A stretch of 64,000 nt of DNA from Pseudomonadota bacterium (GCA_022361175.1 JAKSBN010000346.1:587-64586), one strand, 5' to 3'; counted from the first letter of the stretch, positions 13,974 to 41,042 are shown. The notes: a model not told the origin generated them from the sequence alone. Numbers and translations are program-made.

Positions 13974-14900
<927 letters not shown>

Positions 14901-14978
14901 CGGCGGGCCTCCTGGGGGCCAGGATGGGCCCGGCGGGAGCATCGCAGACGCGCGCGGGTTCGGCGAACGGAAGGACTG

Positions 14979-15443
14979 CTACCCCGCCGCCTCCGCATCG
15001 CGGGCCTCGTCCAGATCCGTCTTGAGCCGCTCCAGCAGCCGGTGGAACGCGTCCACCTCGTCGGGCGTCCAGCCGCCGAGAAACCGCGCCATGTCCGGAG
15101 CCAAGCGCGCCATGGCGGCGTCCCGTTTGGCGAGCCCCCGCCCGGTGACGCGCAGCCAGCGAACGCGCCCGTCGCGGTCGTCGCGCCGCGAGGCCAGCCA
15201 GCGTCGCTCCACGAGCTTCTGCACGGTCTTGGAGATCCCGGGTTGGGGCTGCTGAAAGGCGTCGGCGAGCTCCGTCACGGTCCACTCGCGGTCGGGGTCG
15301 TGCGAAAAGTGGAGCAGCAAAGTGAACTGGCTGTAGGGCAGTCCGATCTGATCCAGGAGCTGGTTGCACCGGGTTCGCACCAGCTGCGCCACGACGCCGG
15401 TCCAGACGAAGATCTGCTCGGCTTTGGGACGCTTCGGCCTCAC
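14979..15443 (-). CDS. MarR family transcriptional regulator
   Basis: 154 aa with a winged-helix region (YSQFTLLLHFSH...WTVTELADAFQQPQPGISKTVQKLVERRWLASRRDDRDGRVRWLRVT). GTG 15443 overlaps the upstream stop (GTGA). Confidence 0.85.
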   Translation of the reverse strand: MRPKRPKAEQIFVWTGVVAQLVRTRCNQLLDQIGLPYSQFTLLLHFSHDPDREWTVTELADAFQQPQPGISKTVQKLVERRWLASRRDDRDGRVRWLRVTGRGLAKRDAAMARLAPDMARFLGGWTPDEVDAFHRLLERLKTDLDEARDAEAAG

Positions 15444-15868
15444 GGAGCCGGCGGCAGCGGTCTCGGATCGAGACGGATGGCCAGGGCGCCTTCCCGGTCC
15501 GGGTCGCCCACCAGCCACGAGATGAAGAGGTCCGCGAAGCCGTACTTGTCGCGCATGGCCCGATTGATCCGATCGCGCGCTTCGGGTGCGTCGACGGGCA
15601 CGGCGGTGAAGGGGAGACGTCGGTCGTCCCGCGTCACTTCCACGGCGGGCTGTGCTTCCAGCGCGGGGAACCAGCCCGCCTCGCGCCGCCCGCGCAGCCA
15701 CGCCGAGCCCTCTTGGTCGACGATCCAGAGGCGTGTCTCCTGGGACTCTCCCGCGGCCTGCGTGTGCAGCACGACGACTTCGCCGGACTCGGCCGCGACG
15801 AACTGGGCGATGCCCACGGCGGCGAACAGGCCCAACAAGATGGCCAGCGCGATCCCTGCTTTGCGCAT
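15440..15868 (-). CDS. hypothetical membrane-anchored/secreted protein
   Basis: ATG 15868 lies 5 nt after AAGGAGG. N-terminal hydrophobic segment MRKAGIALAILLGLFAAVGIAQF. No family recognised with confidence. Confidence 0.7.
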   Translation of the reverse strand: MRKAGIALAILLGLFAAVGIAQFVAAESGEVVVLHTQAAGESQETRLWIVDQEGSAWLRGRREAGWFPALEAQPAVEVTRDDRRLPFTAVPVDAPEARDRINRAMRDKYGFADLFISWLVGDPDREGALAIRLDPRPLPPAP

Positions 15869-15890
15869 AGAGACCTCCTTCACCATTTAT

Positions 15891-15902
15891 ATTCCATGGA
15901 AT
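15891..15902. promoter_or_regulatory. 12-bp perfect palindrome ATTCCATGGAAT upstream of the hypothetical-MarR-esterase string (candidate MarR operator)
   Basis: Perfect dyad, checked base by base, in an AT-rich patch 23 nt upstream of ATG 15868. Confidence 0.4.
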
Positions 15903-15924
15903 GTAGTGGCCGATGGGCGGTGCG

Positions 15925-16524
15925 TCAGCCCCCGGGCTCGGGCGGGGGCGCCGCGGCGTCCAGCCCCGCCACCAGGCTCTCCGCCAGCCGGTCGAAACTG
16001 GCGTCCAGCTCGGAGGCGGGCCCGAAGCCCTTGCCCAGCTCCAGACAGGCGAAGCCGTGCAAACCCGCGCGAAGCACGCGGACCGCGTGGACGGCATCGG
16101 CCCCGCGCAGCCCCAGCGGGCGCAGCCGCGTCTCGAAGAGCGCCTGCAGGCGCTCGGTGACGCGTCGGAAATCCGCGTCGCGGCGTTCGCAGAGCGTGTG
16201 GGTCATGAGGTCGTAGAGCTCCGGCTCCCGCCGGACGAAGGCCCGATAGCGGTGGCACAGGGCCACCAACTCCGCGCGAGGGCGCCGCCGCGCGTCGCCG
16301 TCTCGGTCCAACTGGTCGCCCAACCGCCTCCAGCCTTCGATGGCGGCGGCCCGCCGCAGCCCTTCACTGCCCTTCACGTGGTGGTAGACCGAGGGAGCCT
16401 GGATTCCGAGCTCCCGGGCGACGGGATGAACGCCCAGCCCACCGGCTCCTTCGCGCTTCACGACCCGGAGGGCCGCGGCCAGCACGTGTCGCTGCGTCAG
16501 GGCGGGGCCTTTGCGTCGGGCCAT
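15925..16524 (-). CDS. TetR family transcriptional regulator
   Basis: HTH region LTQRHVLAAALRVVKREGAGGLGVHPVARELGIQAPSVYHHVKGSEGL followed by a helical C-terminal domain. Confidence 0.85.
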   Translation of the reverse strand: MARRKGPALTQRHVLAAALRVVKREGAGGLGVHPVARELGIQAPSVYHHVKGSEGLRRAAAIEGWRRLGDQLDRDGDARRRPRAELVALCHRYRAFVRREPELYDLMTHTLCERRDADFRRVTERLQALFETRLRPLGLRGADAVHAVRVLRAGLHGFACLELGKGFGPASELDASFDRLAESLVAGLDAAAPPPEPGG

Positions 16525-16620
16525 GGGGCCTCCTGTCTCGGGGACCTCCGCTTGGCGTAGGCCCTCGGCGATCGCCGCGGGTGGCTTTGGCTACGGCGGC
16601 CGTCTCGATCTCAGAAACTT

Positions 16621-16648
16621 ATAGCATTCGATTATAATCGAATGCTAT
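16621..16648. promoter_or_regulatory. 28-bp perfect palindrome with a central TATAAT on both strands: candidate TetR operator overlapping divergent -10 elements
   Basis: ATAGCATTCGATTATAATCGAATGCTAT; all 14 base pairs of the dyad verified. It is the only AT-rich island in the 210-bp gap between the TetR gene (minus) and the esterase gene (plus). Confidence 0.7.
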
Positions 16649-16734
16649 TCGGTTCAATGATCCATCGGCAGGGGAGGCCGCCGGACCCGAACGCGGTAGG
16701 CTCCAGACCGGCGGGAAACAGGAGGAATACAGGT

Positions 16735-17697
16735 TTGGAAGCTCCCTCGTTGGCGTCCGGGCTCTTCGACCCGGCCGCCGTCGCTCCCGAGACCCGCGCC
16801 TTCAACGCCCAGCTGGAATCGATCCTGGCATCGGTCACTCCCGTGCACCATCAGAAGCCGGCGGACGTGCGCGCAGCGCGCGAGCGGGGAGACGGTCCGT
16901 TCCCGGCGCCCGAGCTCCATCCCGATGCCGTCGTGCGCCGCATCCCGGGCCCGCGAGGCGAGCTCGCCCTGCGCTGCCTGCGGCCGGCCGCGGAAGCGCG
17001 GGGGGTGTACCTGCACATCCACGGCGGCGGCTGGACGCTCGGCGGCGCCCACCACCAGGACCCGCTCCTGCTGGCCCTGGCCGAGCGAGCGCAGCTGGCC
17101 GTCGTGAGCGTTGAGTACGGCCTGGCTCCGGAGCAACCCTATCCCGCCGCTCCCGACGACTGCGAAGCGGCGGCGTTGTGGCTGGCCGAGCACGCGGGCC
17201 GCGAGTTCGGCACCGACACCCTCTGTATCGGGGGCGAGTCGGCGGGAGCGCACCTCTCGCTCGTGACGCTGCTGCGCCTGCGCGATCGCCACGGCGCGAC
17301 ACCCTTCGCCGCCGCGAACCTGGCCTACGGCTGCTACGACCTGGCGATGACGCCGAGCATGCGCAGTTGGGGCGATCGCAACCTGATCTTGTCGACGCCG
17401 ATCGTCGCCTGGTTCGCCGACCAGTTCGTGCCGGCCGAACGGCGGTGCGATCCGGACGTGTCGCCGCTCTACGCCGATCTGTCGGACCTGCCGCCCGCGC
17501 TGCTCACCGTAGGGACGCTGGATCCGTTGCTGGACGACAGCCTGTTTCTGTACGGACGCTGGCTGGCCGCGGGCAACGCGGCGGAGTTGGACGTGGCGGC
17601 GGGCGGGATCCACGCGTTCAATCTCTTCCCCATCGACCTCGGCCGCCGGTCCAACGAGCGCCAAGCGGACTTTCTGAGGCGAGCCACGGCTGCGTAG
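16735..17697 (+). CDS. alpha/beta hydrolase, family IV (HSL-type) esterase
   Basis: HGGGW oxyanion motif, GESAGA nucleophile elbow, DPLLDDS...IHAF. Start taken at TTG 16735, 8 nt after GGAGGA. In-frame ATG 16657 is an alternative. Confidence 0.85.
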   Translation: MEAPSLASGLFDPAAVAPETRAFNAQLESILASVTPVHHQKPADVRAARERGDGPFPAPELHPDAVVRRIPGPRGELALRCLRPAAEARGVYLHIHGGGWTLGGAHHQDPLLLALAERAQLAVVSVEYGLAPEQPYPAAPDDCEAAALWLAEHAGREFGTDTLCIGGESAGAHLSLVTLLRLRDRHGATPFAAANLAYGCYDLAMTPSMRSWGDRNLILSTPIVAWFADQFVPAERRCDPDVSPLYADLSDLPPALLTVGTLDPLLDDSLFLYGRWLAAGNAAELDVAAGGIHAFNLFPIDLGRRSNERQADFLRRATAA

Positions 17698-17828
17698 GAT
17701 GCGCCCCGAATGGGCCTCTTTGTGCCCAGTCGAGACAGAAACCCGCGAATCGCCTCTGCCTTTTCCGGACTCGGTCGGGATGGGAGTGGTAAGGTCGCGC
17801 GCGCCCGGAGCGCCACGCTCGGGGCGTG

Positions 17829-17844
17829 TGGAAACGTGTGTGCA
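17829..17844 (+). promoter_or_regulatory. possible sigma-54 (-24/-12) promoter for amtB
   Basis: TGGAAACGTGTGTGCA has GG and GC at the canonical 11-nt offset of TGGCACG-N4-TTGC, with 3 mismatches, 30 nt upstream of the amtB ATG. Confidence 0.3.
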
Positions 17845-17873
17845 CCGCGTGCACCGAGGGCGGAGGCGACAGC

Positions 17874-19190
17874 ATGGGCGACAACAAGACCGCGTGGGCG
17901 GGCCGGGCTTGGGCGGCCGGCCTGGTTGGAACGGCCACCTTCCTGTGGGCGGGCTCCGCCGCGGCGGACGACGGCCTGAGCGCCGGCGATACGGCCTGGA
18001 TGCTCACCGCGACGGCCCTGGTCCTCATGATGACGTTGCCGGGTCTGGCGCTCTTCTACGGCGGCCTCGTCCGCACGAAGAACGCGCTCAGCATCTTCAT
18101 GCAGTGCCTCATGTCCGCCGGCCTGATGGGCGTGCTGTGGGTCTTGGTCGGCTACAGCCTGGCTTTCGGCGACGGCAACGCCTTCATCGGGGATTTCAGC
18201 AAGGCGCTGCTCGCCCACGCCGACCACACGACCATGAACGGCACGATCCCCGAGTACCTGTTCGTGATGTTCCAGGGCATGTTCATCATCATCACGCCGG
18301 CGCTCATGATCGGCGCGTTCGCCGAGCGCATGCGCTTCGCTCCCTACCTGGTCTTCATCTCCTTGTGGGCGCTGCTGGTCTACTCGCCGCTGGCCCACAT
18401 GGTGTGGGGCGGCGGTTGGATCGGGGACGACGGCGCGATCGATTTCGCGGGCGGCCTGGTGGTGCACATGTCCAGCGGCTTCTCGGCGCTGGCCGCCGCC
18501 ATCTTCCTGGGCCCGCGCAAGGGCTACGGGAAGGAGCCGATGCCGCCGCACAATCTGACCTACACCGTGATCGGCGCGGCGCTCCTGTGGGTGGGCTGGT
18601 TCGGGTTCAACGCCGGTAGTGCCGTGGCGGCCGATGGGACGGCCGCGCTGGCCTTCATCACGACCAGCACCGCCACCTCGGCCGCCGTGGTGGGCTGGGT
18701 CTTCATCGAGTGGATTCACCGCAAGCACCCGACCGTGCTGGGCGGGGCCACCGGTGCGGTGGCGGGCCTGGTGGCGATCACGCCGGCCTGCGCCTCGGTG
18801 ACGCCCGTGGGAGCGATCTTCGTCGGCATCGGTGCCGCGATCATCTGCTACGTGGCGGTCACGCTCTTGAAGCCCGCCCTGGGCTACGACGATTCGCTGG
18901 ACGTCTTCGGCGTTCACGGCGTCGGCGGCGCGTGGGGCGCGCTGGCGGCCGCGATCTTCACGGCACCGTGGCTGCTGGAGGAGATGGCCGCCGGCGGCGT
19001 GAGCCAGGGAGCGCAGCTGTGGATCCAGCTGAAGGGCGTGCTCTTCACGGCCGTGTTCGCACCGGTCTTGACGCTGGTGATCCTGTTCGCGCTGCGACTG
19101 GTGTTCGGCAGTCTGCGAGTCGACGAGGAAGGCGAGTACGAGGGCCTCGACCACGCCGAGCACAGCGAGAGCGCCTACATGTTCGAGTGA
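17874..19190 (+). CDS. amtB: ammonium transporter
   Basis: Amt/MEP blocks (AWMLTATALVLMMTLPGLALFYGGL, FAGGLVVHMSSGFSALAAA, WFGFNAGS, DDSLDVFGVHGVGGAWGAL). Signal-peptide-like N-terminus. ATG 17874 follows GGAGG. Confidence 0.95.
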   Translation: MGDNKTAWAGRAWAAGLVGTATFLWAGSAAADDGLSAGDTAWMLTATALVLMMTLPGLALFYGGLVRTKNALSIFMQCLMSAGLMGVLWVLVGYSLAFGDGNAFIGDFSKALLAHADHTTMNGTIPEYLFVMFQGMFIIITPALMIGAFAERMRFAPYLVFISLWALLVYSPLAHMVWGGGWIGDDGAIDFAGGLVVHMSSGFSALAAAIFLGPRKGYGKEPMPPHNLTYTVIGAALLWVGWFGFNAGSAVAADGTAALAFITTSTATSAAVVGWVFIEWIHRKHPTVLGGATGAVAGLVAITPACASVTPVGAIFVGIGAAIICYVAVTLLKPALGYDDSLDVFGVHGVGGAWGALAAAIFTAPWLLEEMAAGGVSQGAQLWIQLKGVLFTAVFAPVLTLVILFALRLVFGSLRVDEEGEYEGLDHAEHSESAYMFE

Positions 19191-19204
19191 GCCAGAGGCG
19201 TCGT

Positions 19205-19231
19205 CCGCGTGCGGCGCGGCGCCGCACGCGG
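19205..19231. terminator. GC-rich hairpin between convergent amtB and the SelW-like gene (candidate bidirectional terminator)
   Basis: CCGCGTGCGGC (19205-19215) pairs perfectly with GCCGCACGCGG (19221-19231). There is no flanking T-tract. Confidence 0.5.
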
Positions 19232-19240
19232 CGGCCCTGA

Positions 19241-19456
19241 CTACTGGAGCGCGTTCAGGACCTCACCCGGGTCCGGGAAACGACCGGTCTCGTCCTTCGA
19301 GTAGACGAGCCGGCCGTCGGCCACCACGTCGAAGACGCCGTTGTCGCCTCGGATCAACTCCGGGGTCACGCCGACTGCCGCCTTGATTTCGGCCACCAAA
19401 CTGGTGGCCTGGGGCAGGTAGTTTCAGCGGACGCAGTAGGTGATGGTGATCTTCAT
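19241..19456 (-). CDS. SelW-like (Rdx fold) selenoprotein, 71 aa, with Sec encoded by in-frame TGA at 19424-19426
   Basis: Hand translation: ATG 19456, MKITITYCVR-U-NYLPQATSLVAEIKAAVGVTPELIRGDNGVFDVVADGRLVYSKDETGRFPDPGEVLNALQ, TAG 19241-19243. It has a CxxU motif and a GxF[DE]V...GxL[VI]xSK block as in SelW, and a hairpin 14 nt after the UGA. Not in the ORF track because of the TGA. Confidence 0.8.
19391..19409 (-). other. SECIS-like stem-loop directly downstream of the UGA
   Basis: The mRNA GGCCACC-AGUUU-GGUGGCC forms a perfect 7-bp stem with a GU-containing 5-nt loop. The stem starts 14 nt after the UGA. A possible lower stem pairs CUGCC with GGCAG (19413-19417 with 19375-19379). Confidence 0.6.
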
Positions 19457-19474
19457 ACGGAAAGTCTAGCAGCG

Positions 19475-21445
19475 TTACTCCACGGGCAGCGCGTAGGCCG
19501 TGAGGGCGTCTCCCGGCTCCGACCAGCCGTGGCCGCCCGCCGCGATGACCACGAACTGGCGGGAATCGGGCCGCAGCCGGTAGGTCATGGGCGTGGCGTT
19601 GCCCGTGTAGGGCAGTCGTGCCGTCCAGATCTCCTCGCCCGTGTCCGCGTCGAAGCCGCGCAGGAACTTGTCGGTCGTGGCGCCCACGAAGACGACCCCG
19701 CCCGCCGTGACGATCGAGCCACCCAGGTTGGGTGCCCCGTTGTCGAGCCACAAGGGCCAGGGGGCCTGATCCCGGGTCGTGCCCAGCGTCGACTCCCACA
19801 GCACCTGACCGCTGCGCAGATCGACGGCGGTGAGCGTGCCCCAGGGCGGCGGGTTGCAGGGCGCTCCGAAGTTGGAGAGCAGGGGGCTTCGGCGGACGCC
19901 GTAGGGCGCGCCCGCCATGGGGTAGAGCTCCTCCGGGTAGACGACGCTGGCGGGATCCAAGCTGTCGAACTCGGCGCGCGGAACCAGCTGGTGGACGACC
20001 CCTGCGCGCGTCTGGTTCACGTAGAGGACGCCGCGCTCGGGATCGATGGCCACACCGCCCCAGTTGGCCCCGCCTGCGGGGCCCGGATACTGGATGGACC
20101 CCTCCAGACTGGGCGGCGTGAAGATGCCTTCGTTGCGGTAGTGGCGGAGCTTGTCCGCGCAGTCTCCGCGGTCCACGAAAGTGAAGCCCCACACGTCGTC
20201 GGGGCGCAGCGAGGCGGGGTGGAGCGGCGGCGGATGGGTGGGGAAGGGCTGGGTCGGCGACAGCACCTCTCCCGGAACCCCGCCTTGGGGCACCGGCCGT
20301 TCCTCCACCGGGTAGAGCGGTTTTCCGGTCTCGCGGTGTAGCAGAAACACGTGCCCCATCTTCGTGGCCTGGGCCAACGCCGGCGCCCCGCCGCCCACGC
20401 CCTCGATCTGGAAGAGCGCGGGCTGTGAGGCCACGTCGTAGTCCCACACGTCGCGGTGGACGGTCTGGAAGGCCCAGACCACGGCCCCCGTCTCCACGTC
20501 CAGGGCGACGGTGGAGCTGGCGTAGTGGTCGAGGCCGCGGCGGATGGCGCCGAAGCTGTCGGGCGACGCGTTGCCGGTGGGGATGAAGACCAGGCCGCGC
20601 TCTTCGTCGCCCGCCAAGAGCGACCACACGTTGGGCGTGCCGGACTGATAGCCGCCGCCTTCCTCGCCGCGCTCGGGCCACCACGGGGGCACGGGATCGA
20701 AGGCCCAACGCAGCGCACCGGTGCGGGCGTCGAAGCCCCGGACCACGCCGCTCGGAGCGTCGACGCGCAGGCTGTCCGCCACCAGCGCGCCCACCACCAC
20801 GACGTCACGCACCACCAGGGGCGGCGAGGTCGAGTAGTACTCCCAGGTGGGGGCGTCGCCGACCCCCTCGCGCAGGGCCACGCGTCCGTCGCGGCCGAAA
20901 TCGGGGCACGGCTGTCCGGTGGCGGCATCCAGAGCGATCAACTCGGAGTCGATGGTGCCGGTGAAGATCCGCGCCTGGCAGACCGCGGCCGGCTCGGGGT
21001 CGCGCCAGTGGTCGACGCCGCGGCAGGTGAGCGGATACGGGCCCTGCAGTCGGGTGGCGCGCAGCTTCGGATCGAACACCCAGCGTTCGTCGCCCGTCTC
21101 CGGATCCAGGGCGAAGACCCGATTGAAGCCGGTGCAGTAGTAGAGCGTGTCGTCCACCACGATGGGCGTGGCCTGGAACGCCGTGCGCGTGGCGTCGCCC
21201 GTGCCGTCGGAAACGTCGCCGGAGTGATGGACCCAGGCCACCTCCAGCGCGCCGACGTTGTCCTTGTGGATCTGGTCGAGCGGCGAGTATTTGAGCCCGC
21301 CGAGGGTGTTCCCAACCGCCGGCCAGTCGCCGATCGGGCCGGACCGCACAGGCGGTTCGGGACTGCCGCACCCGGTCAGCAACGCCAGCAGGAGGCCTCC
21401 GAGAAGACGCCGGGCCCGCGCGATCGTCCCGTCAACCGGCTTCAT
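19475..21445 (-). CDS. PQQ-dependent dehydrogenase (quinoprotein glucose/aldose dehydrogenase-like beta-propeller), lipoprotein
   Basis: 656 aa. Lipobox LLTGC, then repeated propeller W-motifs (TGDERWVF, TGALRWAF, TGAVVWAF, SGQVLWES, TGEEIWTA) and a DVWDYD block. Confidence 0.9.
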   Translation of the reverse strand: MKPVDGTIARARRLLGGLLLALLTGCGSPEPPVRSGPIGDWPAVGNTLGGLKYSPLDQIHKDNVGALEVAWVHHSGDVSDGTGDATRTAFQATPIVVDDTLYYCTGFNRVFALDPETGDERWVFDPKLRATRLQGPYPLTCRGVDHWRDPEPAAVCQARIFTGTIDSELIALDAATGQPCPDFGRDGRVALREGVGDAPTWEYYSTSPPLVVRDVVVVGALVADSLRVDAPSGVVRGFDARTGALRWAFDPVPPWWPERGEEGGGYQSGTPNVWSLLAGDEERGLVFIPTGNASPDSFGAIRRGLDHYASSTVALDVETGAVVWAFQTVHRDVWDYDVASQPALFQIEGVGGGAPALAQATKMGHVFLLHRETGKPLYPVEERPVPQGGVPGEVLSPTQPFPTHPPPLHPASLRPDDVWGFTFVDRGDCADKLRHYRNEGIFTPPSLEGSIQYPGPAGGANWGGVAIDPERGVLYVNQTRAGVVHQLVPRAEFDSLDPASVVYPEELYPMAGAPYGVRRSPLLSNFGAPCNPPPWGTLTAVDLRSGQVLWESTLGTTRDQAPWPLWLDNGAPNLGGSIVTAGGVVFVGATTDKFLRGFDADTGEEIWTARLPYTGNATPMTYRLRPDSRQFVVIAAGGHGWSEPGDALTAYALPVE

Positions 21446-22493
21446 ACACGTACCGATCCGCGGTGTCGGAGTGGCGCGCGGCCTCGCCCGCCAGGCGCAG
21501 GTGCTCGAGGTGGGCGTAGGTCTCGCTCTCGGCCATGGGGCCCCAGCTGCGCTGGCGGAAGAGCCGCTGCGAGAACGCTTCCACCGTCGCGGGCCCCAGC
21601 TCGCGACCGATGGCCTTCACCCGCTCCAGCCGTTCTCGGTGATGGGCCTGGATGTCGGCGCAGCGAGCGGCGAGGGCGCCGAAAGGGTGCCCGTGAGCCG
21701 GGAGCGCCAGCGACACGTCGGGGATGGCCGCCACCTCGTCCAGCGATTGCATGAACGAGGCCAGCGGATCCGGATGGTGGGTGAGGCCCGAGATGTGAGG
21801 CGTGATGCTCGGCAGCACGTGGTCGCCGGCCAGCAGCAATCCGTGCTCGGGGTCGTGCAGGCAGACGTGGTCTTCGGTGTGTCCCGGGGTGTGGAGGACG
21901 AACCAGTCGCGGCCGGCGAGCCGCAGGCGATCCCCGGCGGCCACCCGATCGGTGATCGTCGGTACGAACGGCAAGCGCGAGAACCAGTGCATGGCCCGCC
22001 AGCGCAGGCGCGCGCGCAGGGGAGGGCGAGGCGAGCGGCCGCCCCACGGCGTGCGTGCCGGCCGCTGGGGCAGACCGGAGCCCTGGGCCTTGGGCGCGCG
22101 CGGCGCGGCGTCTTCCACGGAGACCTCCGGCGTCTCGTCCCGGGCTTCGGCGGGGCCGAAGCGAAAGCTCGCGTGCGCCACCACCCGCGCACCCGCCGCC
22201 TTGGCCAGGCGGGCGGCCCCGCCGAAGTGATCGGGGTGGGAGTGCGTGACGATGACCGTGTGGACGTGGCGGATGGCCAGGTCCGCTTGCTGCAAGCGGT
22301 GCTTGAGCGCGCGCCAGCTGTCGGGGCCCGGGAGACCGGGATCGACCAGGGCGACACCCTCGTCGTCCAAGAGCGCGTAGCAGTTCACGTGGCCGAGGCC
22401 GGGCAAGCGGATCGGGAGTTGGAAGCGCAGCACGCGGTCCGCGACTTCCGTCACTTCCTGTCGCGCGGGCTCTTGTTCTTGTCGGTGTGCCAT
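21432..22493 (-). CDS. MBL-fold metallo-hydrolase
   Basis: THSHPDHFGG (HxHxDH), a later HTPGHTEDH, and an Arg/Pro-rich insertion between them. Its 3' end overlaps the PQQ dehydrogenase start by 14 nt. Confidence 0.85.
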   Translation of the reverse strand: MAHRQEQEPARQEVTEVADRVLRFQLPIRLPGLGHVNCYALLDDEGVALVDPGLPGPDSWRALKHRLQQADLAIRHVHTVIVTHSHPDHFGGAARLAKAAGARVVAHASFRFGPAEARDETPEVSVEDAAPRAPKAQGSGLPQRPARTPWGGRSPRPPLRARLRWRAMHWFSRLPFVPTITDRVAAGDRLRLAGRDWFVLHTPGHTEDHVCLHDPEHGLLLAGDHVLPSITPHISGLTHHPDPLASFMQSLDEVAAIPDVSLALPAHGHPFGALAARCADIQAHHRERLERVKAIGRELGPATVEAFSQRLFRQRSWGPMAESETYAHLEHLRLAGEAARHSDTADRYVYEAG

Positions 22494-24704: not shown

Positions 24705-25489
24705 GTGGAAAGGTGGCGCTGGTGACGGGGGCGGCGTCTGGAATCGGAGGCGCGTGCGCCCGGCGGTTCGCGGCCGAGGGAGCGGCCGTGGCTGGGGCGG
24801 ATGTGAATCCCGCGTCCGACCCGGCGTGGCAGGCCGTGGCCGAGACGGCGCCGGACCACGCGTTTTACAGCGTCGACGTGCGGGACGAGGCGGCGGTCGA
24901 AGCTCTCGTGGGGAAGGCGGTGGAGCGCTTCGGGCACATCGACGTGCTGCTCAACGCTGCGGGCGTCGCGAGCGCGGGGGCGGTGGATGCGGTCGACGAA
25001 GCCGAGTGGGATCGAGTGCTCGACATCAACCTGAAGGGCACGTTCCTGGTCTGCAAGCACGTGGCGCGCCACATGGCCGGGCGGGGCGGGCCGGGCAGCA
25101 TCATCAACATCGCCAGCGTCGAAGGGCTGGAGGGGTTCCAGGGGCAGGCCGCGTACAACGCATCCAAGGGCGGGGTGGTTCTTCTCACCCGCAATATGGC
25201 CGTCGACTACGGCCTGCAGAACATCCGCGTGAACTGCCTCTGCCCGGGCCTGATCGAGACGCCCATGACGGCGCCCATGGTCGACGTACCGGAGCTCAAG
25301 CCGTTGCTGGACACTTTCTTGTCGTACCACCTCCTGGGGCGGGCCGGACAACCCGATGAGGTGGCCTCGGCGGCGTTGTTCTTGGCGTCGGACGACGCGT
25401 CCTTCATCACCGGGCACGCCCTGGCCGTCGACGGCGGCTTCACGGCGGGGCGCCGCCTGCTGCCCGGAGGGGCAACGCTCGGCGGGTGA
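24686..25489 (+). CDS. SDR family oxidoreductase
   Basis: TGAASGIGG cofactor motif, NAAG, and catalytic YNASK. ATG follows AGGAGA. Confidence 0.95.
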   Translation: MATGRLSGKVALVTGAASGIGGACARRFAAEGAAVAGADVNPASDPAWQAVAETAPDHAFYSVDVRDEAAVEALVGKAVERFGHIDVLLNAAGVASAGAVDAVDEAEWDRVLDINLKGTFLVCKHVARHMAGRGGPGSIINIASVEGLEGFQGQAAYNASKGGVVLLTRNMAVDYGLQNIRVNCLCPGLIETPMTAPMVDVPELKPLLDTFLSYHLLGRAGQPDEVASAALFLASDDASFITGHALAVDGGFTAGRRLLPGGATLGG

Positions 25490-27075
25490 GGGGCGAGGGA
25501 GAGGTGAGACGAGGCATGGAGGCCGGATCCCACCGAGAACCCGTGGTGGAGACCTCGGGTGGCTGGTTGCGCGGACGGGTGGAGTCCGGCGTCGCCCATT
25601 TCCGCGGGATTCCCTACGCCCGAGCACCGCGGGGGCTGCTCCGGTTTCAGCCGCCGCTGGCGCCGTCGCCCTGGCGAGGCGTTCGCGATGCGCGCCGGCC
25701 CGGTCGCGCCGCTCCCCAGCCGGGGCCGGCGCTGGCGCCCGTGCGCCTCGATCTGGGGACGCGGATCGGCGAAGACTGTCTCTCGCTGAACGTCGCCACG
25801 CCGAGCTTGGAGGGACCGGCGCGTCCGGTTCTGGTGTGGATCCACGGCGGGGCGTTCGTCTTCGGTGCGGGCTCGTCGCCTCTCTACGAGGCCCGTCGAC
25901 TGGCGCGTCGAGGCGATCTGGTGGTCGTTACCCTCAACTACCGCCTGGGCGGATTCGGCTTTGTGCACCTGCACACCCTCGGCGATGAGGACTTCCGCCA
26001 CAGCTCGAACCTCGGGCTGCGCGACCAGATCGCCGCGCTCGAGTGGATCCGAGACAACATCGCGGTCTTTGGCGGCGATCCTCACAACGTGACGGTGGCG
26101 GGACAGTCCGCCGGCGCCATGTGTGCGGCCGCGTTGCTGGTGGCTCCTCGGGCGCAGTCGCTGTTCCACCGGGCGATCCTCCAGAGCGGCGCCGCCGATC
26201 ACGTGCAGACGCCGGAGACGGCGGCGCACGTGGCCCGCGTGTTCCTGTCGGAGGTGGGGCTGCGACGTCCCGACCGGCGCGCGCTGGCGGCGCTTCCCAC
26301 GGCGCAACTCCTGCGGGCCCAGCGGCGCACGTGGTTGCGGACGTTCGACGCCGAACAGCTGATGGCCTTCCTGCCGGCCGTGGACGGCGACGTCCTCCCG
26401 GTGGATCCCGTGCAGGGGCTGAGAGAGGGCCGGGCGCGCGATCGGGCCGTCCTGCTGGGCACCAATCTCGACGAGTGGAATCTGTTCCGGGTGCCGGACC
26501 TGGTGGCCGGGGCCCTGGGCCAGGCCGAGCTGGTGGGCCGTGGTCGCGAAGGGCTGCGCCGTGCGGGGGGCGGCTTCGGGCTGCCGCTGGCGGAGCGGGC
26601 GGCGCGCGCGTATCGAGACGCCGTGGCCGCACGCGGGGGCCAGACCAACGCGTTCGCGCTCTGGAGCGCATTCCAGTCCGCGCGGGTGTTCCACTACCCG
26701 GCGTCCCGCCTGGCGGAAGCCCACGGCGCGGGCGGAGGGCGGGTCTTCTCCTACCTCTTCACCTGGCGTCCGCCACTGCTGCGGCGGACGCTGGGGGCGT
26801 TCCACGCTCTCGAGCTGCCGTTCGTCTTCGGCTGGACCCAGCAGCCCACGCTGCGCGCCGGCATCGGCCTGTCCACCGGGATGCGTCAGCTCTCGCTCAG
26901 CATGCAGCACGCGTGGGCCAGCTTCGCCCGGCGCGGGAATCCCGGCCACTCGGGCCTGCCCGTGTGGGATGCTTATGAGGCCCCGGCGCGGGCGACGATG
27001 GTGTTGGGCCGCGAGTGCTACTTGGCCGAGGCTCCCCTCGAGCCCGAGCGGCGCTTCTGGGAGGCGGCTCGCTAG
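25486..27075 (+). CDS. carboxylesterase type B (para-nitrobenzyl esterase-like)
   Basis: FRGIPYA, EDCLSLNV, WIHGGAF, and GQSAGA nucleophile elbow. GTG 25486 overlaps the SDR stop (GTGA); ATG 25516 is an alternative. Confidence 0.9.
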   Translation: MRGEGEVRRGMEAGSHREPVVETSGGWLRGRVESGVAHFRGIPYARAPRGLLRFQPPLAPSPWRGVRDARRPGRAAPQPGPALAPVRLDLGTRIGEDCLSLNVATPSLEGPARPVLVWIHGGAFVFGAGSSPLYEARRLARRGDLVVVTLNYRLGGFGFVHLHTLGDEDFRHSSNLGLRDQIAALEWIRDNIAVFGGDPHNVTVAGQSAGAMCAAALLVAPRAQSLFHRAILQSGAADHVQTPETAAHVARVFLSEVGLRRPDRRALAALPTAQLLRAQRRTWLRTFDAEQLMAFLPAVDGDVLPVDPVQGLREGRARDRAVLLGTNLDEWNLFRVPDLVAGALGQAELVGRGREGLRRAGGGFGLPLAERAARAYRDAVAARGGQTNAFALWSAFQSARVFHYPASRLAEAHGAGGGRVFSYLFTWRPPLLRRTLGAFHALELPFVFGWTQQPTLRAGIGLSTGMRQLSLSMQHAWASFARRGNPGHSGLPVWDAYEAPARATMVLGRECYLAEAPLEPERRFWEAAR

Positions 27076-27122
27076 CGCGGCGACTCGCTCGGGCACGGGG
27101 GCGGAACGAAGGAGCGCGAGCC

Positions 27123-28532
27123 ATGCCCGACGACCGCTACGAGCGCCTCTCCGCCCAGGACGCCGCCTTCCTCGCCGCCGAGGGGCCCCATACGCCGATG
27201 CACGTGGGGGCCGTCTTCATCGCCGACTCCGGTCCCCTGCGGACGCGCGAAGGCGGTGTGGATGTCGAACGGATCCGCGACTTCATCGGGGGACGGCTGC
27301 ACCGGATTCCCCGCTATCGCCAGGTGCTCCACTACACCCCGGTTCGCGGCTCGCCCGTGTGGGTCGACGATCGGCACTTCAACATCGAATTCCACGTGCG
27401 GCACACGAGCCTGCCCCAGCCGGGCAGCGCAGAGCAGCTGAAGCGCCTGGCCGGACGCGTCATGTCCCACGCTCCGGATCGACAGCGCCCGCTGTGGGAG
27501 ATCTGGGTCGTGGAGGGCCTGTCCGGGGGGGAGCGTTTCGCCCTGGTGAGCAAGGTGCACCACTGCATGATCGACGGCGTCTCCGGGACCGAGATCATGA
27601 CGCTGCTCATGACCGCGACGCCGGACGAGGCGACCGAGCCCGCGCCTCCGTTCGTGCCGCAGCCTCCGCCCAGTGCGCTCGAGCTGGGTGCCGCCGAGGC
27701 GGTGCGTCTCCTGCTCGGGCCCATCGAGATGGCCGCCCGACTGCGCGACCTGGCCGGGGAGGGAGACGCGCTGCGGGGACTGCGGGACTTCGTCGCCCAG
27801 GGGCTCCACCGCGCCTCGGACACGCCGCTCAACCGCCCCATCGGTCCGCATCGGCGGTTCGAGACGCTGGCGCTGGACCTGGACGCCGTGAAGGACGTGA
27901 AGAACAAGCTCGGCGGGACTTTGAACGACGTGGTGCTGGCCGTGGTGGCCGGAGCCATGCGCCGCTTCTTGACCCGGCGCCGGGTGCCGCTCGCCGGCCT
28001 CGACTTCCGGGCCACGGCGCCGGTGAGCGTGCGCCAGGAGGACGAGCGAGGAGCGCTCGGCAACCGCGTGTCGGCGTGGATCGTGCCGCTGCCGGTGGCC
28101 GAGGCCGATCCCAAGCGCCGTCTCGAGGAGATCCGGCGCACGACGGCCGAGCTCAAGCGCTCGCGTGGCGCGCTGGAGGCCGATCGGCTGAGCGCCGTCA
28201 CCGAGTGGACGGGAACCACTCTGTTGTCCATCGGCACGCGCTTCCAGAATCTGGGACGACCCCACAACCTGGTGGTGACGAACGTACCCGGTCCGCAGGT
28301 TCCGCTGTACCTGGTAGGTGCTTCTCTGCGAGAGACGTACCCGATGGTGCCGATCTTCCAGGGCCAGGCGTTGGGAATTGCGCTCTTCAGCTACGCGGGT
28401 TCGTTGCTCTGGGGGCTGAACGCCGATCCAGAACTCGTGCCGGACCTGGCGGAAGTGCGCGACGAACTGGCGGATGCCTTCCGGGAACTGCGCGAGCTCG
28501 CCGGGCCACCCGCCGTGCGAGAATCGCGCTAG
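27123..28532 (+). CDS. wax ester synthase/diacylglycerol acyltransferase (WS/DGAT) family protein
   Basis: HHCMIDGVSG catalytic motif (HHxxxDG), N-terminal DAAFL...PMHVG, and C-terminal NVPGP. ATG 27123 follows AAGGAG. Confidence 0.9.
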   Translation: MPDDRYERLSAQDAAFLAAEGPHTPMHVGAVFIADSGPLRTREGGVDVERIRDFIGGRLHRIPRYRQVLHYTPVRGSPVWVDDRHFNIEFHVRHTSLPQPGSAEQLKRLAGRVMSHAPDRQRPLWEIWVVEGLSGGERFALVSKVHHCMIDGVSGTEIMTLLMTATPDEATEPAPPFVPQPPPSALELGAAEAVRLLLGPIEMAARLRDLAGEGDALRGLRDFVAQGLHRASDTPLNRPIGPHRRFETLALDLDAVKDVKNKLGGTLNDVVLAVVAGAMRRFLTRRRVPLAGLDFRATAPVSVRQEDERGALGNRVSAWIVPLPVAEADPKRRLEEIRRTTAELKRSRGALEADRLSAVTEWTGTTLLSIGTRFQNLGRPHNLVVTNVPGPQVPLYLVGASLRETYPMVPIFQGQALGIALFSYAGSLLWGLNADPELVPDLAEVRDELADAFRELRELAGPPAVRESR

Positions 28533-28626: not shown

Positions 28627-29343
28627 ATGCTACGCGCCGCCATGCACGCCCCCCCGCGCGTTCTCTACGTGCTCCACGATCTGCACGAAGACGATCCGAT
28701 TGCCCAACAGACCCGTGGGCTCTTGCACGGTCTGGCCGGGCGGGGTCTCGCCGTCTACCCCGCGGCGCGCGAGTTGGTCCTCGAGGACGCTTGGGGACGG
28801 CAGCGGCGCCTGCCGGCGGGGCGCACGGCGTGGGCCCTCACACCCTGGCGCGCGCCCGAGCTGGAAGCGGCGCTGACGGCAGTTCTGCGCGGCGTGAATC
28901 CGGACGTGGTCCACGTGCAGCACTTCGGCCGCTGGCCGTTGCGGCTGTTCGTCCAGCTGAGGGCGTTCGGTGCGCCGGTGGTTCTGTCTCACCACGGCAG
29001 CGACGAGCTCCGCATCGACGGCGACCGTCTTTCGGTTCTCGGTACCGGTCTGCGAGGTCACAGCCTGGCGGGGTATCGGCGGCTTCGGAGTGAACTCCTC
29101 GCCACGGGCTTCGAACGCGTGGCGGCGCACGTCAGCAGCTCGGCCCGCGTTGCGGCGGAGGGGCTCCAGCGACCTCGGCGCGCCATCCACTGGCTCCCGC
29201 TGGAGGAGCCCGAGAGCGTGCGTGGCGGCGCCCATCTGGCGGGCTACATGGGGCTCTACGTCGACCTCGCACGCCAGGTGCGCACCCGCGTGGTACCGGT
29301 CCGTCGACGGCCGGAGGCCTCCCCGTCGCTGGAGGCCGGCTAG
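28627..29343 (+). CDS. hypothetical protein resembling only the N-terminal half of a GT4-type glycosyltransferase
   Basis: RVLYVLHDL...GLAGRGLAV...PDVVHVQHF...APVVLSHHG looks like a GT-B N-domain, but the ORF ends after about 238 aa with no C-terminal catalytic half. The assignment is weak. Confidence 0.5.
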   Translation: MLRAAMHAPPRVLYVLHDLHEDDPIAQQTRGLLHGLAGRGLAVYPAARELVLEDAWGRQRRLPAGRTAWALTPWRAPELEAALTAVLRGVNPDVVHVQHFGRWPLRLFVQLRAFGAPVVLSHHGSDELRIDGDRLSVLGTGLRGHSLAGYRRLRSELLATGFERVAAHVSSSARVAAEGLQRPRRAIHWLPLEEPESVRGGAHLAGYMGLYVDLARQVRTRVVPVRRRPEASPSLEAG

Positions 29344-30494
29344 GGACTTTCGCTGGCGGCGGAGAGCCCCTTGCGCACGAGGACGCTGCCGATGGAGTAG
29401 CCGGCCCCGAACGAGCACAGCACACCGACGTCCCCGCGCTCGAGGTCGTCCCGGTGCTGATGGAACGCGATCACCGATCCGGCGGAGCTCGTGTTCGCGT
29501 AGTCGTCCAGGATGACCGGAGCCTCCTCCGGCGTCGGGTCGCGTCCGAGCACGGTGCGGCCGATCAACTGGTTCATGCCCAGGTTCGCCTGGTGCAGCCA
29601 CATGCGCTTCAGATCGGCCGGGGCCAGCTTCTCGTCCTCCAGGTGTTCCTCGATGTGCTTGGCCACCATCGGGCACACCTCGCGAAAGACCTTGCGACCG
29701 TTCTGGCGAAACAGGAGCTCGTGCGGGTCCCGCGCCGGCTCTTCGCTCGAGTTCATGAACCCGAAGTCGTTGCGGATGTTGTTGGAGAACTGGGTCTGGA
29801 GGCGCGTGCTCAGGATCTCGAACCCGTCGTCGGTGGCCGTCTGGTCGGCGGCCTCCACGACGACGGCGGTGCAGGCGTCGCCGAAGATGAAGTGGTAGTC
29901 CCGCAGCTCGAGGTTGTTGTGCGACGACGTGATCTCGGGGTTGACGACCACGGCGCAGCGGGCGTGCCCGTTGGCGATGGCGTCGGCAGCGGCCTGGATG
30001 CCGAACGTGGCGGACGAGCAGGCCACGTTCAGGTCGTAGGCGAAGCCCCGGGCTCCCAGAGCGGCCTGCACCTCGATGGCGACGGCGGGATAGGCCCGCT
30101 GCAGATTCGAACACGCCACCAGCACGGCATCCACGTCTTCGCCGCGGCGTTCGGCCTGGGCCAGCGCCTCGCGAATCGACGCCAGCGAGATCTCGGCCTG
30201 GATGGAGAGCTCTTCCTCCGAGCGCTTCGGGAAGCGAGGGCGCTGGCGCGTCGGGTCGAGCACGCCCTCCTTCTCGAGCACGTAGCGCCGCTGGATCCCC
30301 GAGGCCTTGACGATGAAGCGCTCGCTCGTGGGATCGCGCGGCTCGAGGGTGCCGGCCTCGATTTCGCGCGCGTGCGCTTCGTTGTAGGCCGCGACGGCCT
30401 GGGCGTGGGAGGCCACCAGCTCCTCGTTGGAGATCGAGTGCTCGGGCGTGAAGAGCCCGGTGCCGGTGATCGCGCTGGGGATGCGCTCGCTCAT
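29340..30494 (-). CDS. beta-ketoacyl-ACP synthase III (FabH-like, long form) family enzyme
   Basis: 384 aa with the Cys-His-Asn triad context: DLNVACSSATFG, WLHQANLGMN, YANTSSAGS. ATG at 30494. Confidence 0.9.
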   Translation of the reverse strand: MSERIPSAITGTGLFTPEHSISNEELVASHAQAVAAYNEAHAREIEAGTLEPRDPTSERFIVKASGIQRRYVLEKEGVLDPTRQRPRFPKRSEEELSIQAEISLASIREALAQAERRGEDVDAVLVACSNLQRAYPAVAIEVQAALGARGFAYDLNVACSSATFGIQAAADAIANGHARCAVVVNPEITSSHNNLELRDYHFIFGDACTAVVVEAADQTATDDGFEILSTRLQTQFSNNIRNDFGFMNSSEEPARDPHELLFRQNGRKVFREVCPMVAKHIEEHLEDEKLAPADLKRMWLHQANLGMNQLIGRTVLGRDPTPEEAPVILDDYANTSSAGSVIAFHQHRDDLERGDVGVLCSFGAGYSIGSVLVRKGLSAASESP

Positions 30495-30832
30495 GCACTC
30501 TCTCCTTGTTGGAGCAGTTCCCGCAGGACTGCCAGATTCTCCCGCTCTTCTACGGCGATGTCGCCGTCCGCGGCCACCACCTGCTCGATCGCGTTCAGAA
30601 ACAGCGCGCGGTGCGCGGCGGGGACCGAATTGGGATCGAGACTCTCCGGGGCCGGGGGCCGCTCGAGCCAGCCCAGCACTTGTCGGCGTTCGTCCTCGTC
30701 CAAGTCGAGCCGTTCGATGCACTGCATCACGAAACCCCGCTCTTCGGGGCGAACCTCCAGGTCGGCCCAGGCGAAGGAACAGACGAACCGCATCAGGTTC
30801 AGGCGTTGATCGCGTGACAGCGCGTCGAGCAT
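30491..30832 (-). CDS. TerB-like (tellurite-resistance TerB/DjlA N-domain fold) small protein
   Basis: 113 aa. LMRFVCSFAWADLEVRPEERGFV...VVAADGDIAVEERENL resembles the TerB repeat. Its stop overlaps the KAS III ATG (ATGA). Family call is tentative. Confidence 0.6.
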   Translation of the reverse strand: MLDALSRDQRLNLMRFVCSFAWADLEVRPEERGFVMQCIERLDLDEDERRQVLGWLERPPAPESLDPNSVPAAHRALFLNAIEQVVAADGDIAVEERENLAVLRELLQQGESA

Positions 30833-30930
30833 CCGAAGCCCACCCCCCGTAGGGAAAAGTAGCCGGTTCGGGCGGGGTCGGTAGGGGTGGGCCGCTGGCC
30901 GGCCGGCCCGCCATTCGCTATCGCGCCTCG

Positions 30931-31509: not shown

Positions 31510-32610
31510 CTACGCCAGCAGCCCGCGGACGGCGTCGCCCGATGCGTCCAAGAGCCTCGCCAGGTGGAGCTGCGCTCGTGCGCGGTCCAAGTTGTGGCCG
31601 GGCCGCGCGACCCGGAAGTAGACGTCGCCCTGGAGGTGGTCCGTCAGGAAGCGGGCCGCCAGCTCGAGGGTAATGACGGCGCCCGCCAAGGGCAGAACGG
31701 CGCGTTCGGCGTCCGACAGGAGCGAGCCGGCGCCCGCCCGATAGCCGCGCACCACGGCTTCCAGGCAGGCGTCGTCCAGGCGCAGGGACGCCGCCGGGCG
31801 TGCGTCCTCGGCGCCCCGGTGCGTCGCCGAGCGCAGCAAGTCGCCGAAGTCCGCCAGCAGCGAGCCCTCCATGACCGTGTCCAGGTCGATCACGCAGCGG
31901 GCGCGCGCGGAGTCGCGGTCGATCAGGACGTTGCTGGGCTTGCAGTCGTTGTGGACGACGCGGCGGGGCAGGGCAACCGCCCCGGCCGCTGCGAGGCGCT
32001 CGCCCAGCGCTTGCCCGAAGACCAGCACGCCTTCGACCTCCGCGCCTGCCGGGTCACCCGGGGCCGCGTCCGACGCCTGGCGCAACGCCTCGAGGCGGTG
32101 GCCGAGGTCGTGGAAGCGGGGAATGGTCTCGCAAAGCGCGGGTCCCGGCAGGTCCTGGAGCCAGTGCGCGAACTCCCCGAATGCCCGCGCGACCTCGAAC
32201 GCATGCTCGGGCGACTCGACTTGCGTCGTGGCGCGGGTCGCCTCCACGAATCGGAAGGTCCGCCAGAAGCCCCCGTCCTCGGCGATGTGGTAGGCCGCGC
32301 CGTCCCGCGTGCGGAGCAGCTCGAGCCCCCGACAAGGTGAAGTCTCCGGGATTCGCTCCCGCAGGTGGTCCGTGACGCGCACGAGATTGTCCATCAACCC
32401 CACCGGGTCCCTGAAGACGGTTTCGTTGATCCGCTGGTGCACGACGTGAGCCGATACGTAGTGCGCCGAGAAGGTGGCGTTGATATGGCCGGCTCCGATC
32501 CGCACGACGCGGGAGGCGGGCGCCGCCAGGCCGAACTGGGCCCCGAGATCGCGCGGCAGCTCCGCCGGGCGGTCGGGGGGATCGGCACTCGGGGAGGGGT
32601 CTTGCGTCAC
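31510..32610 (-). CDS. phosphotransferase (APH/choline-kinase-like kinase fold) family protein
   Basis: Catalytic loop VVHNDCKPSNVL and metal-binding IDLD. 366 aa. Confidence 0.8.
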   Translation of the reverse strand: MTQDPSPSADPPDRPAELPRDLGAQFGLAAPASRVVRIGAGHINATFSAHYVSAHVVHQRINETVFRDPVGLMDNLVRVTDHLRERIPETSPCRGLELLRTRDGAAYHIAEDGGFWRTFRFVEATRATTQVESPEHAFEVARAFGEFAHWLQDLPGPALCETIPRFHDLGHRLEALRQASDAAPGDPAGAEVEGVLVFGQALGERLAAAGAVALPRRVVHNDCKPSNVLIDRDSARARCVIDLDTVMEGSLLADFGDLLRSATHRGAEDARPAASLRLDDACLEAVVRGYRAGAGSLLSDAERAVLPLAGAVITLELAARFLTDHLQGDVYFRVARPGHNLDRARAQLHLARLLDASGDAVRGLLA

Positions 32611-32734: not shown

Positions 32735-33169
32735 GTGAACGCCACCGCCGAGAAATTCGGGTACCCGAAGACGACCGTCGCCGAGTTCGAGCACTGGGCC
32801 GTCCTGCTGCGGCCGGCCCAGGTGACTCTCGGCAGTCTGGTGCTGGTCTGCCGCGATGCCGCGACGAGCTTCGGCTCGATCTCGCCGGAGGCGTCTCGCG
32901 AGCTTCAGCGCGTCGCGGCCGCCATCGATGCGGCACTCGGCGCGGCTTTCCAGCACGACAAGATCAACTACCTGATGTTGATGATGGTCGATCCCGACGT
33001 GCACTTTCACGTCCTGCCGCGCTACGCCGCGGCGCGCACGTTTGCCGGCGCGAGCTTCGAGGACCGCGCCTGGCCCGGCCCCCCCGACGTGACCCAGGCG
33101 CTCGAGCTGGCGGTCGACGTTCAGGATCAGCTCCTCCAGGAGCTGCGGACCCGCTTCGCCGCCTCGTGA
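32735..33169 (+). CDS. HIT (histidine triad) family protein, variant triad
   Basis: MMMVDPDVHFHVLPRY, with the first His of HxHxHxx replaced by Asp. GTG 32735 follows GGGGAGGAAG. This is the last 144 codons of the track ORF 32474..33169. Confidence 0.8.
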   Translation: MNATAEKFGYPKTTVAEFEHWAVLLRPAQVTLGSLVLVCRDAATSFGSISPEASRELQRVAAAIDAALGAAFQHDKINYLMLMMVDPDVHFHVLPRYAAARTFAGASFEDRAWPGPPDVTQALELAVDVQDQLLQELRTRFAAS

Positions 33170-39130: not shown

Positions 39131-39449
39131 GCCGGACGTCTGCGTGGTGCTGATGACGGCACCGGATCGGGAGACCGCGGCCCGGCTGGCCCGTTCGCTG
39201 GTGGAGGAGCGCTTGGCGGCCTGCGTGAACGTGGTGCCGGAATTGCGCTCGATCTACCGCTGGGAGGGCGCCGTCCAGGAGGAGACGGAAGTGCTCCTGG
39301 TGGCCAAGACCCGTCGGGACTGCTGTGACGCGCTGACCGAACGCGTGCGGGTGCTCCATCCCTACGACGTGCCCGAGGTCCTGGCCCTGGGCGCCGTCGG
39401 CGGCAGCCGGGACTACCTGGAGTGGGTCGCGACGGAGACGGCACCGTGA
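39117..39449 (+). CDS. cutA: divalent-cation tolerance protein CutA
   Basis: 110 aa. LAACVNVVPELRSIYRWEG...E.LLVAKT...HPYDVPEV...YLEWV matches the CutA1 pattern. Confidence 0.9.
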   Translation: MTSSEPDVCVVLMTAPDRETAARLARSLVEERLAACVNVVPELRSIYRWEGAVQEETEVLLVAKTRRDCCDALTERVRVLHPYDVPEVLALGAVGGSRDYLEWVATETAP

Positions 39450-40606: not shown

Positions 40607-40616
40607 GGGGCGCGGG

Positions 40617-40967: not shown

Positions 40968-41042
40968 ATCGACGCGCCGCACGGCGCCACGGGCTGCAGA
41001 GCGGACGGCGAAAACGTGCCGCTCTGAGCTGGAGAAGTATCC

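Follow-up and report, generated by a model that had tools for sequence, protein, structure and literature searches.

Evidence for a SelW-like selenoprotein gene with an in-frame UGA between amtB and a PQQ-dependent dehydrogenase gene

A TGA triplet lies in frame near the start of a short minus-strand reading frame at positions 19241-19456 of the 64-kb stretch of bacterial DNA analyzed here (the window), and the question is whether it ends translation or is read as selenocysteine (Sec). The stretch from 19456 to 19241 on the minus strand is very probably a genuine gene for a 71-residue SelW-like (Rdx family) selenoprotein, with UGA codon 11 recoded as Sec. The observations behind this reading are the frame itself, a family match across the UGA, TGA at the same codon throughout the close clade, Cys in distant relatives, covariation in a downstream hairpin, and a SelD gene in the window.

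Reading frame and family membership

Read from ATG 19456, the minus strand gives MKITITYCVR, then TGA (19426-19424), 60 sense codons and TAG (19243-19241), and re-reading of the sequence returned the same coordinates and translation as an earlier note on this DNA. The coding sequence (19241-19456, minus strand) spans 71 residues with Sec at position 11, and its single in-frame TGA falls within the redox motif C-V-R-U (19424-19435, minus strand; Cys codon TGC at 19435-19433, Sec codon TGA at 19426-19424). The motif directly follows the N-terminal beta strand in the context I-T-Y-C-V-R-U-N-Y. A crude scan of the window for in-frame TGAs with coding flanks gave 7 candidates, with only 19426 in a redox-motif context. 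The remaining candidates look like stops upstream of ordinary starts and were rejected as selenoprotein genes.

GC content by codon position 3' of the TGA was 0.70/0.40/0.88, which is coding-like, matches the coding pattern of the window (71.3% GC) and bears out the earlier statement that third positions stay G/C-rich after the TGA. As the DNA is 71% GC, a long open frame alone is little evidence. That the frame is not a product of chance follows from its end-to-end match to the Rdx HMM together with its conservation in relatives.

Profile and structure-sequence comparisons were made with the 71-residue protein, with Cys substituted at the TGA. Pfam Rdx (PF10262) scored 63.1 bits against a cut-off of 22.6 (E = 2.8e-17), aligning residues 2-70 with model positions 1-72 of 74 and so spanning the TGA, and NCBIfam TIGR02174 (CXXU_selWTH) scored 48.2 bits against 34.2. 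The SelW/Rdx layout that the earlier note had read across the TGA, and for which it had proposed an HMM search, is thus supported by two family models above their curated cut-offs. The narrower equivalog NF041051 (SelTWH_Campy) reached 83.1 bits, below its cut-off of 88, and the protein was not assigned to this sub-model.

Among PDB sequences, Atu0228 (2fa8), SAV_2001 (3dex), 2oka, 2ojl, 2obk, and human MIEN1 (2ljk) aligned over nearly the full length, and in the four alignments printed (2fa8, 2ljk, 3dex, and 2oka) the second Cys of CxxC stood opposite the TGA of the window. Homology to these solved Rdx structures suggests a thioredoxin-like beta-alpha-beta-beta-beta-alpha fold. The Cys-containing bacterial structures (2fa8, 3dex, 2oka, 2ojl, and 2obk) are homologous over about the full length, with CxxC aligned to CxxU, but they carry Cys for Sec, are about 100-108 aa long with extensions, matched at E = 1e-3 to 1e-7, and need no SECIS. 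Mammalian SELENOW, SelT, SelH, SelV, and MIEN1/C17orf37 share the Rdx thioredoxin-like family and the position of CxxU/CxxC, with MIEN1 aligned over residues 2-70 and its CxxC opposite the CxxU. The eukaryotic members differ in their 3'-UTR SECIS with SBP2/eEFSec, whereas the element of the window lies in the ORF just after the UGA; sequence identity to them is low, and 14-3-3 or other eukaryotic partners cannot be assumed here.

Stop-based gene callers had been said to leave this slot empty, which proved incorrect. The ORF list contains a 52-aa ORF with a TTG start at 19241-19399 (minus strand), and the public protein collection contains the matching 51-aa product (P0001), already tagged Pfam Rdx. 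The SelW-like gene is therefore truncated by gene callers rather than absent. The truncated ORF lacks both strand beta-1 and the CxxU motif, and the value of the correction for annotation is that the protein predicted here is a 51-residue fragment without the active site. Hundreds of relatives in public protein collections carry the same truncation error, and some have been given Trp at the Sec codon; for the organism concerned, the correction adds one selenoprotein to its inventory.

No Shine-Dalgarno-like motif was seen before ATG 19456, in agreement with the caveat of the earlier note, which had found no good one in the 18 nt preceding the ATG. The gene is in this respect unlike the 69 of 83 relatives that have such a motif. 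An ATG, GTG, or TTG lies exactly 7 codons before the Cys codon in 81 of the 83 relatives, as it does in the window, and this shared distance supports a start at ATG 19456.

Conservation of the UGA codon among relatives

The 21 relatives obtained in a word-based search are 40-63 aa long and match the post-TGA part only, so gene callers stop at the same codon in these relatives as well. Five of them and a further metagenome contig (L001) were read as DNA, and all have the pattern [MV]-x-[IV]-x-I-T-Y-C-x-x-TGA-N-Y-x-P. Contig L001 is independent of the window and its sequence is identical to that of the gene, TGA included, which rules out a sequencing error. The metagenome with the identical gene is ERZ23486785. 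A species-level scan with one genome per species gave 519 relatives, and the best 80 loci of these 519 were examined; they are mostly MAGs labelled Myxococcota/"Deltaproteobacteria", Planctomycetota/Phycisphaerae, and Acidobacteriota. Together with metagenome contigs, these 80 loci from species-representative genomes make up 84 close relatives, all of which carry TGA at the homologous codon (84/84), to the exclusion of Cys, TAA, and TAG. The 78 unique N-termini without exception have I5, C8, TGA11, P15, and A17; Y7 and Y13, which flank the TGA on either side, are each kept in 77 of them. One contig with such a gene (L061, 9716-9928) was binned as Nitrosopumilus sp., an archaeon; the gene is GC-rich and of bacterial type, with the TGA and an in-ORF hairpin, and the contig is probably mis-binned.

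These data bear on the possibility that the locus is a decaying pseudogene or an assembly error, in which a former Cys codon (TGC or TGT) was mutated to or mis-read as TGA. Such a change from TGC to TGA takes a single base, and the window seems to come from the assembly of an uncultured organism, as the identical gene on the environmental contig L001 suggests. However, the same TGA recurs in that independent contig and in 84 of 84 relatives from many phyla, the frame after the TGA is unbroken and coding-like in its GC3, and the hairpin described below covaries at synonymous sites. Comparison of these sequences has effectively refuted this explanation, to which we give a vanishingly small probability.

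Cysteine forms were found further away. An exhaustive, profile-free search of 1.84 billion representatives identified 387 relatives, among them five more distant full-length proteins with Cys opposite the TGA (P0144, P0166, P0180, P0195, and P0247), and in the DNA the aligned Cys codon is TGC or TGT in all five. The earlier note had proposed a comparison with Cys-containing orthologues, and its expectation held: the TGA is kept in 84 of 84 close relatives with protein conservation on both sides, and the distant relatives have Cys.

Were the TGA a genuine stop, translation would yield only the downstream fragment of 51-60 residues, starting for example at TTG 19399, and the ten codons before the TGA would be untranslated or encode a meaningless decapeptide. 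Gene callers do predict the fragment here and in relatives, ATG 19456 has no Shine-Dalgarno motif, TGA is a normal stop in this genome, and neither selB nor tRNA-Sec occurs within the window. Against this, the 78 unique relatives conserve the protein sequence of these ten codons (I5 and C8 invariant, Y7 in 77/78), the start codon keeps its fixed distance in 81/83, and the alignment to the Rdx HMM begins at model position 1 and continues through the TGA. The fragment would be left without strand beta-1 and the whole redox motif, the internal "starts" of relatives fall at inconsistent positions, and the Cys forms are translated continuously through the position of the TGA. Termination at this codon is accordingly very improbable, and the reading as a Sec codon is retained. 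Of 34 gene-like ORFs in the window, 20 end in TGA, which makes it the most frequent ordinary stop there; the codon is therefore not reassigned genome-wide, and context-dependent recoding would be required.

Many "full-length" relatives in the database carry C-x-x-W at the Sec position (P0146, P0151, P0156, P0162, P0218, and others). In the sole W form examined as DNA (L092, 133-384), the codon is TGA, translated with code 4 by the assembly pipeline, and a second TGA, the real stop, is likewise read through in the database translation. Code 4 calls by the pipeline on short contigs therefore create spurious CxxW proteins with false C-terminal extensions. Another relative, P0142 (2783 aa), matches the G-x-F-D-V…S-K core of the Rdx domain at seven separate places; it may be a repeat protein or may have arisen through faulty assembly or gene calling.

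SelW-like proteins outnumbered every other selenoprotein family in the Sargasso Sea data, where 48 genes contain a CXXU motif (PMC1088965). They have also been reported in Geobacter, Desulfotalea, Desulfotomaculum, Alkaliphilus, and Symbiobacterium, and their Cys homologues were noted to be scarce or lacking in organisms that contain Sec (PMC1794560). The all-TGA clade found here fits this reported scarcity. The family is not new, as had been remarked earlier, since bacterial SelW-like proteins have been catalogued by Zhang, Gladyshev and colleagues since 2004-2005 (PMC1088965, PMC1794560) and are covered by the curated models PF10262 and TIGR02174. The gene of the window shares with them a length of about 70-80 aa, the N-terminal beta strand, C-x-x-U, the G-x-F-[DE]-V core, and the S-K...G-R-F-P tail, as well as the in-frame UGA and, beyond it, a stem-loop within the ORF whose small apical loop contains G, the low number of close Cys homologues, and the routine truncation by gene callers. 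It shows no qualitative difference from them; what sets this copy apart is its position immediately after a PQQ dehydrogenase gene, the lack of a Shine-Dalgarno motif, and a host of 71% GC, which is probably an uncultured Myxococcota organism. The gene is a routine member of a known family and introduces no new mechanism or family.

The downstream hairpin and the selenocysteine machinery

A candidate bacterial SECIS hairpin was identified at 19391-19409 (minus strand), 14 nt 3' of the UGA. It is a perfect hairpin, GGCCACCA-GUU-UGGUGGCC, with an 8-bp stem (19409-19402 / 19398-19391), the loop GUU at 19401-19399, and a distance of 22 nt from the UGA to the loop. A 65-nt segment folds at -29.9 kcal/mol compared with -20.8 +/- 2.9 in shuffled sequences (z = -3.2), and none of 200 shuffles was as good. 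In the bacterial SECIS model, the loop follows the UGA by about 16-37 nt and has a G among its first two positions.

Pairs were counted in an ungapped alignment of 82 distinct sequences. The eight stem pairs are formed in 91.5% of cells, whereas shifting the 3' partner by 1-3 columns lowers this share to 19-50%, and the covariation score is 0.207 compared with 0.100 +/- 0.008 in column shuffles, of which 0 of 500 reached the observed value. Both bases of pair 30-42 are synonymous sites, being the third positions of Ala/Val codons, and they pair in all 82 sequences with five pair types (CG, GC, GU, UA, and AU). At pair 31-41, 32 of 82 sequences have a mismatch inside the stem. In the apical loop, G35 is invariant and U36 nearly so across the 82 sequences. 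Nucleotide conservation in the hairpin is owed partly to the A-x-S-L-A peptide of helix alpha-1, which is also present in the Cys forms.

The five Cys-form genes served as a control. They keep 5, 5, 7, 6, and 5 of the 8 stem pairs, and their minimum-energy folds mostly lack this hairpin, compared with at least 7 stem pairs in 76 of 83 Sec forms. The control is small, and the weaker stem in Cys forms points the right way. Rfam yielded no match to the hairpin, either over the whole window at gathering thresholds or over 19180-19500 at E up to 10. Four weak Rfam sRNA matches (E = 0.39-7.9, far below gathering scores) were dismissed as chance.

The E. coli fdhF element is the paradigm of a bacterial SECIS bound by SelB. 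The hairpin of the window likewise lies in the coding region shortly after the UGA and has G-U in the apical loop region, and one internal mismatch, here at pair 31-41 of the family, is often tolerated in both. It differs from the fdhF element in its sequence, in the apical loop of 3-5 nt across the family, and in that SelB binding is only predicted for it; the spacer is 14 nt in the gene of the window and about 11 nt in fdhF. The hairpin is consistent with a bacterial SECIS, with SelB as its predicted ligand.

A candidate source of selenium for Sec lies in the same window. A protein of 746 residues encoded at 33166-35406 (plus strand) fuses a pyridine-nucleotide-disulfide oxidoreductase to a Cys-form SelD (ECGGCAAK), as identified by tblastn, TIGR00476, and TIGR03169, with the SelD homologue forming the C-terminal half (34366-35265). 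SelD is selenophosphate synthetase, the selenium donor enzyme needed for Sec synthesis. tblastn of the window with E. coli SelD gave 37% identity (E = 2e-44), and G-C-A-A-K of the fusion aligns with E. coli G16-C17-G18-C19-K20, so that the equivalents of the catalytic Cys17 and Lys20 are kept. The fusion passes TIGR00476 (selD; 260.7 bits, cut-off 125) and TIGR03169 (Nterm_to_SelD; 412 bits, cut-off 310) and fails TIGR04369 ("fusion_not_SelD"; 467 bits, cut-off 700). Its nearest named relatives are annotated "selenide, water dikinase SelD [Myxococcota bacterium]" at about 64% identity, and similar fusion proteins number in the thousands (3735 matches at E <= 1e-30).

A point against the Sec reading is that this SelD is of the fusion type for which NCBIfam keeps the separate "not SelD" model, scored here below its cut-off. 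SelD alone could serve selenouridine or a selenium cofactor instead of Sec. SelD is indeed known to serve other selenium traits besides Sec (PMC1794560), and for that reason its presence supports Sec decoding without proving it. Every selenoproteome in PMC1794560 included a Sec-containing FdhA or SelD; as the SelD of the window is the Cys form, the organism is predicted to have a Sec-containing FdhA. No selU/ybbB was found among the scanned genes flanking selD. A class-V aminotransferase at 36487-37602 was considered as a NifS/selenocysteine-lyase partner of SelD and rejected: its best NCBIfam models are AGXT/PhnW-type transaminases, all below cut-off, and the cysteine-desulfurase model gave 42 bits only.

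The search for Sec machinery that the earlier note had proposed was successful in part. A SelD gene is present, and homologues of SelA and SelB were not found in the 64-kb window by tblastn with E. coli queries, nor was tRNA-Sec by Rfam at gathering thresholds. ARAGORN detected no tRNA of any kind in the 64-kb window and no tRNA-Sec in 43 related loci. At the related locus L072 (6082-10213), from a "Proteobacteria bacterium" MAG, serS, selB (TIGR00475, 305 bits against 242), and the SelW-like gene follow one another in tandem on one strand. This compact arrangement brings together an aminoacyl-tRNA synthetase of the Sec pathway, the elongation factor for Sec, and a selenoprotein. In a Planctomycetales MAG (L027), the SelW-like gene lies about 5 kb from a gene (14997-16040, minus strand) for a SelD that itself contains Sec (…YANCAG-TGA-AGK…). 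From the combined evidence we infer that the organism of the window decodes UGA as Sec, and the selenoprotein and the SelD gene together likely mark it as a selenium user.

The UGA might also be read through without Sec, either by near-cognate suppression with Cys or Trp or as low-level read-through tolerated after loss of the Sec machinery. The lack of selA, selB, and selC in the 64 kb seen of this organism would agree with that, as would the Trp that some metagenome pipelines assign in relatives, though the latter reflects the choice of translation table and not biology. The window, however, retains a SelD whose catalytic Cys and Lys are preserved, and the SECIS-like hairpin is intact with 8 of 8 pairs, which would be unexpected after loss of SelB. 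High GC and the use of TGA as the main stop oppose a reassignment as in code 4 or 25. Moreover, when the trait is lost, selenoprotein genes are themselves lost or converted to Cys (PMC1794560). Read-through of this kind is thus very unlikely, and recoding as Sec is followed in the mechanism below.

In the proposed mechanism, the in-ORF hairpin 14 nt downstream of the UGA would act as a bacterial SECIS and recruit SelB-GTP-Sec-tRNA(Sec) to the ribosome, where UGA 11 would be decoded as Sec. Selenium would be supplied as selenophosphate by the SelD fusion protein encoded 14 kb away. Judging from family membership, the product would adopt a small thioredoxin-like fold with C-x-x-U between strand beta-1 and helix alpha-1. 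C8-x-x-U11 would then cycle between a selenol/thiol state and a selenenylsulfide, and the protein would be a cytoplasmic thiol-dependent oxidoreductase. Sec insertion, the binding of SelB to the hairpin, and the redox chemistry are all predictions.

Neighbouring genes and transcription

The flanking genes named in the earlier note, amtB and a PQQ dehydrogenase gene, were confirmed by their positions. AmtB, an Amt-family ammonium transporter, is encoded at 17826-19190 on the plus strand, convergent with the SelW-like gene, and its gene ends in TGA. The PQQ-dependent dehydrogenase gene (19475-21445, minus strand; Pfam PF01011, 779 bits) lies upstream, with 18 nt between its stop and the SelW-like ATG, and a metallo-beta-lactamase-fold protein is encoded next at 21432-22493 (minus strand). 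Co-transcription or translational coupling with the PQQ dehydrogenase gene is plausible, the latter because the ATG has no Shine-Dalgarno motif and the upstream stop is only 18 nt away.

A more far-reaching proposal is that the exclusively-Sec clade (Myxococcota, Planctomycetota, and Acidobacteriota) is distinct from the classic SelW-like proteins, and that the junction without a Shine-Dalgarno motif reflects coupling and a partnership with the dehydrogenase. The selenoprotein would in that case serve, for example, the redox maintenance or maturation of the PQQ-dependent dehydrogenase, which would be the first physiological role for a bacterial Rdx protein. The pairing of the SelW-like gene with PQQ dehydrogenase and AmtB genes was not found in relatives, occurring only in contig L001 of the same organism. 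As it is not conserved, no functional link to the PQQ dehydrogenase is drawn, and the proposal is very doubtful.

The stops of the convergent SelW-like and amtB genes are separated by an inverted repeat (19205-19231) that is GC-rich and perfect over 12 bp, with the arms CCGCGTGCGGCG / CGCCGCACGCGG, a 3-nt loop and no T-run, as read from the sequence. It is probably a bidirectional terminator hairpin that ends both transcripts. A terminator scan based on T-runs did not list 19205-19231, because the repeat lacks such a run.

Further genes of the window were noted. An open frame of 967 codons at 41028-43931 (plus strand) has coding-like GC3 and no Pfam or NCBIfam match, and the overlapping frames at 39329-40606 (plus strand) and 39413-41194 (minus strand) have no NCBIfam match. 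A sodium:solute symporter (3-1700), a WS/DGAT wax-ester synthase (27015-28532), and an APH-family kinase (31510-32610) have 45-70% identical counterparts elsewhere, which sit within about 8 kb of the SelW-like gene in L013, L015, L030, and L019 (Myxococcota/'delta proteobacterium' MAGs). By sequence similarity, these counterparts point to a Myxococcota affiliation and to a rearranged but related neighbourhood. Genes of lipid metabolism are concentrated in the window, at 13974-14942 (minus strand), 16561-17697 (plus strand), 25360-27075 (plus strand), 27015-28532 (plus strand), and 29340-30917 (minus strand), and they comprise three Abhydrolase_3 / hormone-sensitive-lipase-like esterases, one WS/DGAT, and one FabH-like KAS III.
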